Shown here piece after piece: positions 1 to 3,000 of a stretch of DNA of 64,000 nucleotides. Made by a program: the position numbers. Position 1 is the stretch's first letter. Each line of letters opens with the position of its first letter. This DNA is from Escherichia coli (lineage in GTDB: Bacteria; Pseudomonadota; Gammaproteobacteria; Enterobacterales; Enterobacteriaceae). Location of the stretch: the NCBI RefSeq assembly GCF_050320075.1, contig NZ_CP190018.1. One strand, given 5' to 3'.

Positions 1-3000
1 GCACGCGTCAGATCGCCACGTTCTTCAATAATGGCATCCAGCATCTGGCGATAATGGGCGGTGATATTCTTCACGTAGCTCATATCTTTGTAACGCCCTT
101 CAATCTTGAAGGAGCGTACGCCAGCATCAATCAGCGCGCCGAGGTTGGCAGTCTGATCGTTATCTTTCATCGACAGCAGATGTTTTTCATAGGAAACCAC
201 CCGCCCCTGATCGTCTTTCAATGTGTATGGCAAACGGCACGCCTGCGAGCAATCGCCACGGTTGGCGCTACGCCCTGTTTGCGCATGAGAAATGTAGCAC
301 TGACCCGAATAGGCCACGCACAGTGCGCCATGAATAAAGAATTCAATGGTCGCGTCCGTGGCCTGGTGAATCGCGCGGATCTGCTCAAGATTCAGCTCTC
401 GCGCCAGCACAATCTGCGTGAAGCCAACATCAGAGAGGAACTTCGCTTTTTCTACTGTGCGAATATCGCACTGCGTACTGGCGTGCAGTTCAATCGGCGG
501 AATATCAAGTTCCAGAATCCCCATATCCTGAACAATCAGCGCATCGACGCCGGTCTGGTAGAAGTCGGTAATCAGCCGTTGCGCAGGTTCCAGCTCATCA
601 TCATGCAAAATGGTGTTAAGCGTGACGAAAATTTTTGCACCATAACGATGGGCAAACGGCACCAGTTCGGCAATATCTTTCAGGCTATTACTGGCATTAT
701 GACGGGCACCAAAACCAGGGCCGCCGATATAAACAGCATCGGCACCGTGCAAAATAGCTTCGCGGGCAATGGCGGCATCGCGTGCCGGGCTTAACAGTTC
801 AAGTCGATGAGAAGATACGGTCACATTCTTATCCAGTAGCTGAAAAATGGCGGCTATTTTAGCCACAAGCGCGACGTTGCGAAATAGTTTTCCCGCTTAA
901 CTGCGCGGGTAATGGATGAGGGAATGAAAATGTACGATTTGCTCCCCACCATTACGATAGACATGCGTAACGTCTGCAGCAAATCGAGCGCCTTTTCCAC
1001 AATTAAGGCTCTGCCATTCACCATCAACGCACAGATCAAGTTGCCCATCAATGACGACAACATGTTCGATTACTCCCTTCTCATGGGGCGTCGATTCGCT
1101 TATTGCACCGGGTGCCATCTGAATCGAGAAGTGTTCAAAGCAGAGTTGTGGATCATAAGGAAACAGCGAAGTGATCACCATCGCCTGCTGTTGCGGATCA
1201 TAAACTGAAGGCGTAGCGGACTGCGGCGGAGAAATAAATGTCGAAAATGGCACATTCAACCCGGTGGCAATTTTCCATAATGTCGCGACCGTCGGGCTGG
1301 ACTCATTACGCTCAATCTGCCCTAACATCGCTTTAGAAACGCCCGTCGCTTCTGCCAGTCGCGAAAGACTCCAGCCATGCTGCTGACGTAGTTGTTTAAG
1401 TGTGGTGGATAAAAAGCGAGCGAGATTTTCCATGCGACTCCTCCGGCAAAACGGAAGTTTATCACTTGTGCGTTATAACGGACAAATGCTACGGTACCTG
1501 TACGTTATAACGCACGAGGTGACTATGCGTCTGTTTTCTATTCCTCCGCCCACGCTACTTGCGGGGTTTCTGGCGGTATTAATTGGCTACGCCAGTTCAG
1601 CGGCAATAATCTGGCAAGCAGCGATTGTCGCCGGAGCCACCACTGCACAAATCTCTGGCTGGATGACGGCGCTGGGGCTGGCAATGGGCGTCAGTACGCT
1701 GACTCTGACATTATGGTATCGCGTACCTGTTCTCACTGCATGGTCAACGCCTGGCGCGGCTTTGTTGGTCACCGGATTGCAGGGACTAACACTTAACGAA
1801 GCCATCGGCGTTTTTATTGTCACCAACGCGTTAATAGTCCTCTGCGGCATAACGGGACTCTTTGCTCGTCTGATGCGCATTATTCCGCACTCGCTTGCGG
1901 CGGCAATGCTTGCCGGGATTTTATTACGCTTTGGTTTACAGGCGTTTGCGAGCCTGGATGGTCAATTTACGTTGTGTGGCAGTATGTTGCTGGTATGGCT
2001 GGCAACCAGGGCCGTTGCGCCGCGCTATGCGGTAATTGCCGCGATGATTATTGGGATCGTCATCGTTATCGCGCAGGGTGACGTTGTCACAACTGATGTT
2101 GTCTTTAAACCCGTTCTCCCCACTTATATCACCCCTGATTTTGCGTTTGCTCACAGTCTGAGCGTTGCACTTCCCCTTTTTCTGGTGACGATGGCATCGC
2201 AAAACGCACCGGGTATCGCAGCAATGAAAGCAGCCGGATATTCGGCTCCTGTTTCGCCATTAATTGTATTTACTGGATTGCTGGCACTGTTTTTTTCCCC
2301 TTTCGGCGTTTATTCCGTCGGTATTGCGGCAATCACCGCGGCTATTTGCCAAAGCCCGGAAGCGCATCCGGATAAAGATCAACGTTGGCTGGCCGCTGCC
2401 GTTGCAGGCATTTTCTATTTGCTCGCAGGTCTGTTTGGTAGTGCCATTACCGGGATGATGTCTGCCCTGCCCGTAAGTTGGATCCAGATGCTGGCAGGTC
2501 TGGCGCTGTTGAGTACCATTGGCGGCAGTTTGTATCAGGCGCTGCATAATGAGCGTGAGCGAGACGCGGCGGTGGTGGCATTTCTGGTAACGGCAAGTGG
2601 ATTGACGCTGTTCGGGATTGGTTCTGCGTTTTGGGGATTAATTGCCGGAGGCGTTTGTTACGTGGTGTTGAATTTAATCGCTAACAGAAACCGATAATAA
2701 AAAGCGCCATCTAACGATGGCGCGTCTGGAACTACTTTTTGTTAACGTCAAACATGGTGGCACCGGTCGCCATGTCATCAATAACTTGTTTAATATTTTC
2801 GAAAGCCATTGGCGTACTTTCGTTATTCAGGTCTTTACCTTCGCCCTGACGAACGACTTTGATAACCGGTTTATTAGTCGCTGCATCAATCAGCTCACCT
2901 TCAAAATAGAGGCGAGTATCCATGGTACGGTGGCCTGTAGCCATTTGCGTCCCCGCAACCACTAATGCAACAGGAACCACTTCATAGAATTGCAGCCCTT

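Follow-up and report, generated by a model that had tools for sequence, protein, structure and literature searches.

Uninterrupted ydcL–ydcO junction of an Escherichia coli chromosome as the empty counterpart of the K-12 IS609 site

The junction between the convergent genes ydcO and ydcL in the 64-kb stretch of Escherichia coli DNA analysed here (hereafter, the window) is, as judged from its sequence, an unoccupied target site of the insertion sequence IS609, which separates the two genes in K-12. The occupied allele differs from the junction by the complete element only, the site has the conserved tetranucleotide target, and IS609 itself has the subterminal hairpins, the Y1 (HUH) transposase, and the TnpB protein of the IS200/IS605 family. 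Based on parsimony, the lineage of the window was very probably never occupied by IS609 at this position. The difference between the two alleles is an ordinary presence/absence polymorphism of an IS at a site annotated in the reference genome and is, as such, already known; that the window documents the pre-insertion state of the K-12 IS609 site matters little. The insertion point is fixed to the base, i.e., in the stop codon of ydcO and 3′ of the TTAT closing the T-tract of the ydcL terminator, and the junction is of practical use as a natural empty-site control (predicted TAM and target) for tests of InsQ/omega-RNA activity or of IS609 retention in E. coli.

Locus layout and features

The first 8 kb of the window comprise rlhA(ydcP)–sutR(ydcN)–ydcO–ydcL–tehB–tehA–ydcK–rimL, in the orientation opposite to that in K-12. 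The following features were delineated at the junction:

1525-2697, + strand: ydcO, open reading frame of 390 aa encoding a BenE-family transporter that ends ...IANRNR-TAA (Pfam BenE, E = 1.6e-161)
2695-2697, + strand: stop codon TAA of ydcO; the K-12 IS609 insertion point falls between 2696 and 2697
2697-2700, - strand: IS609 target / left-end cleavage motif TTAT (ATAA on the + strand), unoccupied, within the T-tract TTTTTAT; motif shared by five loci
2697-2723, - strand: predicted intrinsic terminator of ydcL, stem GCGCCATC / GATGGCGC, loop GTTA, followed by TTTTTAT
2698-2731, no strand assigned: uninterrupted intergenic spacer of 34 bp between the convergent genes ydcO and ydcL, TAAAAAGCGCCATCTAACGATGGCGCGTCTGGAA
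2732-3400, - strand: ydcL, open reading frame of 222 aa encoding a DUF3313 lipoprotein (Pfam DUF3313, E = 1.8e-62)

The stop codon of ydcL reads CTA on the + strand (2732-2734) and, together with the stop codon of ydcO (2695-2697), leaves exactly 2698-2731 between the genes, matching the distance of 34 bp given in an earlier note on this DNA. This spacer would be the junction of the convergent genes in its original form, containing nothing but a second in-frame TAA, an A/T tract, and the terminator hairpin of ydcL.

Comparison with K-12 and insertion point of IS609

The earlier note had mentioned an IS609-related gene (insQ/ydcM) between ydcL and ydcO of K-12, and the annotation of NC_000913.3 agrees: an “insertion sequence:IS609” of 1748 bp is located between the two genes (1503161-1504908) and contains yncK (tnpA pseudogene) and insQ/tnpB (“putative RNA-guided DNA endonuclease”). 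When the K-12 locus (L001) was compared to the window using BLAST, L001 3-5161 matched window 7856-2697 with 98.5% identity and L001 6910-9605 matched window 2696-1 with 97.7% identity. The unmatched 1748 bp between these blocks are exactly the annotated IS609, with the break at window 2696|2697, so the direct adjacency of ydcL and ydcO, which if present in K-12 would have refuted the earlier note, is not shared by K-12.

In the ydcL sense, K-12 reads ...GATGGCGCTTTTTAT | CCGGTGCGCC...[IS609]...GGAGGATGTCAA | TATCGGTTTCTGTCAGCG, and the window reads ...GATGGCGCTTTTTAT|TATCGGTTTCTGTTAGCG. Joining the K-12 flanks restores the empty-site sequence exactly (AACCGATA|ATAAAAAGCGCC); the K-12 insertion has neither a target duplication nor a scar, and its breakpoint is unambiguous. 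IS609 splits the stop codon of ydcO in K-12 (TA|T TGA), where the gene reads ...CGA TAT TGA versus ...CGA TAA in the window. Hence, ydcO of K-12 encodes 391 aa (1176 nt), with an extra Tyr and a stop codon provided by the right end of the IS, versus 390 aa (1173 nt) in the window.

The absence of an IS609 remnant between ydcL and ydcO, as claimed in the earlier note, was confirmed and applies to the entire window, since a blastn search (E <= 1e-3) with the K-12 IS609 against all 64 kb returned no match and thus no cryptic remnant. The window is the exact empty counterpart of the K-12 IS609 locus, at the same chromosomal site and with flanks of 97.7-98.5% identity, but it lacks the whole 1748-bp element and its ydcO ends in its own TAA.

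IS609 as a member of the IS200/IS605 family

Copies of IS609 were identified at four further loci, i.e., at a TetR-family gene by ytfB (two strains including O157:H7 ATCC 43888, in which tnpA is intact), at yedK, in a DUF3251 gene near nrdR (strain 28Eco12), and at gltX/yfeD. All five loci, including the ydcL site, read ...TTAT|CCGGTGCGCC...GGATGTCAA|, while their flanks are unrelated and without duplication. Since TTAT lies directly 5′ of the left end at five independent loci, it is the target of IS609, and this motif, for which the earlier note had proposed to search at the junction, is located exactly at the K-12 insertion point (2697-2700, - strand). According to a survey paper (PMC9956272), TTAT is the most common motif cleaved at the left end of IS605-type elements, and TCAA the most common one at the right end.

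IS609 lacks terminal inverted repeats, its ends being CCGGTGCGCC... and ...GGATGTCAA. The subterminal hairpin at the right end (CCACGTCC-TTCA-GGGCGTGG) is clear (z = -2.5), and the one at the left end is imperfect and weak (z = -0.8). Searches against Pfam identified Y1_Tnp in the intact TnpA of O157 as well as OrfB_IS605, Cas12f1-like TNB, and HTH_OrfB_IS605 in InsQ. IS609, having the Y1 transposase TnpA and TnpB/InsQ, would be inserted in the form of single-stranded DNA on the 3′ side of TTAT. In an ancestor shared by the K-12/B1-type lineages, the element would have landed after the TTAT closing the terminator T-tract, thereby keeping the ydcL terminator and splitting the ydcO stop codon. 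The junction resembles the empty or donor-joint sites of other IS200/IS605 elements (IS608, TTAC; ISDra2, TTGAT) in that a tetranucleotide target (TTAT) is followed by the right-end-flanking sequence and no duplication is present.

Prevalence of the junction states

The prevalence of each junction state was determined in 5426 complete E. coli genomes. The uninterrupted junction (100-bp junction query matched in one place) was detected in 2047 genomes (38%) and the K-12-type ydcL–IS609 left-end junction in 3268 (60%). Approximately 88 genomes (2135 − 2047) carry a 709-bp IS200C in the A-tract of the same spacer, and a few genomes have deletions or further ISs at the junction. The IS200C insertion (window-equivalent 2698-2703; L003 1903-2611; L084) is found in, e.g., WCHEC000837 and JMK_KBN3987, the latter being the closest relative of the window on the ydcL side. 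As both IS200C and IS609 occur in the spacer, the A/T tract of the terminator is a repeated landing site for IS200/IS605 elements. Irrespective of the locus, IS609 is present in 5015 of the 5426 genomes, with plasmids among its locations; the number of places per genome has a median of 2 and a maximum of 9.

Ancestral state of the junction

IS200/IS605 elements excise seamlessly. An excised site would hence look like a never-occupied one, so that the ancestral state was judged from the distribution among strains, the junction by itself being indecisive. The best 60 matches to window 1-7856 (7.8 kb), including 28Eco12 and many OXA-244-type clinical isolates, were ~100% identical and all uninterrupted; the OXA-244-type isolates among these relatives are presumably ST38, phylogroup D. 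Local neighbor-joining trees of 19 E. coli strains and three outgroups were calculated from p-distances of the flanks after excluding the IS; a caveat to these trees is that the underlying 6.6-kb region recombines and that the internal E. coli branches are short. K-12, LY180, 2013C-3181, and STEC2018-553 (all with IS609) grouped in a single clade, with the empty O157:H7 next to it; the window paired with JMK_KBN3987 (IS200C), and the groups of APEC O1, MS1679/APEC E956, and GN25/FCI48 as well as all outgroups were empty. Outside the K-12/B1-type clade, every E. coli lineage sampled is empty, except for the mosaic, IS609-bearing SCU-301, and the ST38-like window is placed among the empty lineages outside the IS609 clade.

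The window and K-12 have 127 differences across the 6.6 kb, compared with 120 between the window and the empty MINF_9A. A closer relationship of the window to occupied strains was considered because the ydcL half of an 801-bp query was 99.5% identical to these strains, and was rejected since the SNP lists indicated local conservation only (127 vs 120).

Outgroups were retrieved by a protein-seeded scan with one genome per species, and the outgroup comparison is based on three cryptic-clade-like Escherichia genomes (L005, L006, and L007). These lineages are 87-91% identical to the window, and their ydcL and ydcO are 34 bp apart with no IS in between. No E. fergusonii locus was among the matches of this one-genome-per-species scan, and E. 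albertii is uninformative as an outgroup because it has lost ydcO and sutR.

A single gain of IS609 in the K-12/B1-type clade explains nearly everything in this distribution, and ancestral occupation would need many independent precise losses. We consequently have high confidence that the window retains the ancestral uninterrupted junction, in line with the earlier note, which had called this state probable; the three outgroup lineages, the E. coli lineages sampled outside the K-12/B1-type clade, and the best 60 relatives are all empty. The arrangement of K-12, despite being found in most sequenced genomes, is supported as derived. Evidence counter to a never-occupied lineage is the activity of IS609 somewhere in the species (5015/5426 genomes; intact tnpA in O157:H7), due to which both gain and loss at the site are possible. 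Moreover, as the IS609-bearing SCU-301 is found among empty haplotypes, the history of the site is not a single clean event.

It is very unlikely that IS609 was once present in the lineage of the window and that the junction was restored by TnpA-mediated precise excision (“peel” without “paste”). A scar is not expected after seamless excision in this family, and ST38-like relatives carry IS609 elsewhere (28Eco12, DUF3251 gene), so that TnpA could have been available in trans at some time. With the best 60 relatives, the sampled deeper E. coli clades, and the three outgroup lineages all being empty, however, such a secondary loss requires an additional gain plus an additional loss. InsQ, if active, should furthermore counter-select excision products. 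In addition, tnpA is dead in the ydcL-site and 28Eco12 copies examined, and the K-12 copy never moved in mutation-accumulation lines (PMC5009759).

Replacement of an occupied ancestral allele via homologous recombination with DNA from an empty-site strain is likewise highly improbable. The region is visibly mosaic in E. coli, as SCU-301 combines a B1-type ydcL flank with an empty-type ydcO flank, and the window and its right-flank relative JMK_KBN3987 diverge far more on the ydcO side, where 51 of their 72 differences are located (left of 2697). However, no occupied-site relative of the window was found among the best 60 matches, and neither flank of the window shows a particular affinity to the IS609 clade, given the similar numbers of differences to K-12 and the empty MINF_9A (see above). 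A lineage never occupied by IS609 is hence the preferred reading.

Mosaic allele of SCU-301 and lesions of tnpA

SCU-301 (L087) has IS609 at the site, yet it clusters with empty-site strains (comparison with L096, L091, and L001 across window-equivalent 2394-3500). Its ydcL flank (2697 to ~3500) shows 1 difference to LY180 versus 9 to MINF_9A, and its ydcO flank matches that of MINF_9A as far as the IS. Judging from these flanks, the occupied allele probably entered SCU-301 through recombination, and one of the breakpoints would lie at the IS or within it.

The IS609 copies at the ydcL site carry four different tnpA lesions, and insQ (tnpB) is intact in all copies compared (L001, L002, L087, L091, L098, L101, L102). 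The lesion is a stop codon in K-12, a 1-bp deletion in STEC2018-553, a 5-bp deletion in LY180 and 2013C-3181 (common to the yedK copy of RM7190), and a Tyr-to-stop change in SCU-301 (common to the DUF3251 copy of 28Eco12). A single shared tnpA lesion as proof of one insertion was ruled out by these four lesions; therefore, a single origin was deduced from the identical junctions and the clade formed by the flanks instead of from the IS sequence. Either tnpA decayed independently after one insertion, accompanied by gene conversion or trans-mobilisation, or the site was hit more than once. The lesions common to other loci imply trans mobilisation of tnpA-dead elements or gene conversion between copies.

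Predicted target of InsQ

By analogy with characterised TnpB systems, the empty junction (TTAT and right-end flank) is the predicted TAM and target of InsQ/omega-RNA of the occupied allele. Within the putative 16-20-nt target, the window differs from K-12 at position 14 (TATCGGTTTCTGTTAG vs ...GTCAG), and the predicted TAM and target with both variants is TTAT+TATCGGTTTCTGT(C/T)AGCG. The polymorphic base at position 14 of this putative guide target is window 2683, in codon -4 of ydcO, which is AAC (Asn) in the window, GAC (Asp) in K-12 and most strains, and CAC in some. A literature search on IS609/InsQ returned no functional study of TAM or guide, only general statements on IS605 cleavage motifs and the finding that IS609 did not move in K-12 mutation-accumulation lines.

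RNA-guided homing, in which empty alleles would be cut and repaired from an occupied template after DNA exchange, is an unlikely contributor to the 38%/60% polymorphism in addition to vertical descent. Two hints would fit such homing: the ydcO-side recombination breakpoint of SCU-301, an IS609 allele in an otherwise empty-type haplotype, is either no more than ~65 bp away from the right end or within the IS, and, of the four tnpA lesions at the ydcL site, two are common to copies at other loci.

Predicted terminator hairpin downstream of ydcL

The spacer had been described in the earlier note as consisting of a clean hairpin terminator. A perfect hairpin with an 8-bp stem and a 4-nt loop is indeed present at 2704-2723 (GCGCCATC-TAAC-GATGGCGC, + strand reading), but the description was refined regarding strand, since the T-run is confined to the ydcL-sense (-) strand and the hairpin is hence primarily a terminator of ydcL. 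In the terminator scan, the hairpin was detected on the - strand, beginning 9 nt past the ydcL stop codon; its 8 pairs include 6 G-C, the loop measures 4 nt, and the tail reads TTTTTATTAT. Folds of 56 nt had energies of -16.7 to -16.8 kcal/mol (z = -3.6 to -4.1), and 0/200 shuffles were as stable. In the ydcO sense, GTCTGGAAC comes after the stem, and bidirectional activity would be weak at best. The G+C-rich 8-bp stem, the tetraloop, the A-tract/T-tract on either side, and the 34-bp gap are similar to rho-independent terminators shared by convergent genes; in contrast to these, the T-run is found on one strand only (ydcL-sense), making symmetric bidirectional termination doubtful.

Based on inspection by eye, a hairpin is located downstream of ydcL in nearly all of ~80 Enterobacteriaceae loci, and its stem is kept by paired changes (GCGCCGTC/GACGGCGC in E. 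albertii and K. pneumoniae; GCGCCACC/GGTGGCGC in Enterobacter sp. ENT03). From this structure (G+C-rich stem-loop and U-run on the sense strand just past the stop codon) and conservation (compensatory changes among relatives), we infer that the hairpin is the rho-independent terminator of ydcL. In K-12 it is unbroken, including the T-tract, despite IS609.

That the hairpin is not a terminator but an IS-related or REP-like structure remaining from an insertion can be regarded as effectively refuted: subterminal hairpins do occur at IS200/IS605 ends and the spacer was struck by two different members of the family (IS609, IS200C), but in K-12 the hairpin is outside the IS and unaltered, it does not resemble the hairpins at the ends of IS609, it is found downstream of ydcL in genera without IS609 here, with its T-run on the ydcL-sense strand, and BLAST of IS609 against the window gave no match.

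An Rfam scan at gathering level of the window and the K-12 locus gave no match at the junction or in IS609; the only matches were located elsewhere in the window (13642-13794 and 15799-15862), namely the sok antitoxin RNA (hok/sok-type locus) and the sRNA RydC.

Outgroup loci and wider family

The three Escherichia outgroup loci (L005, L006, and L007) have the same hairpin with the loop GTAA, followed by the T-tracts TTCGGAT, TTCTGAT, and TTCTTAT. TTAT is already present in outgroup E69, and the uninterrupted TTTTTAT tract appears to be E. coli-specific within this sample.

A genuine IS609 remnant was observed in Escherichia sp. MOD1-EC7003 (L004 4700-4992), where TTTTTAT precedes 46 bp in which the left end is fused to the right-end hairpin (CCAGTGCGCCTTATATCCCCGTCCTTCAGTGCGTGGAGGATGCCAA). 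The 3′ end of sutR comes immediately after this remnant, with ydcO and the rest of sutR deleted. E. albertii NBRC 107761 (L008 4670-4860) has kept ydcL and the hairpin, the latter with a compensatory A-T to G-C change, and has lost ydcO and sutR; rlhA begins ~180 bp past ydcL, with a short trace resembling the 3′ end of ydcO.

In many other Enterobacteriaceae (most Citrobacter, Enterobacter, and Klebsiella loci; L009-L083), ~2 kb lie between ydcL and ydcO. This interval is missing in Escherichia, Salmonella subsp. diarizonae (the only Salmonella locus whose ydcO is intact), two Citrobacter strains, Atlantibacter, and one other. As it is present or absent by lineage, the adjacency of ydcL and ydcO is a lineage-specific trait within the family. 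The ydcL-ydcO interval was inspected in a single locus, that of Citrobacter sp. wls619 (L009 4708-6670), where it contains genes for an EamA-family transporter and an AraC-family regulator.
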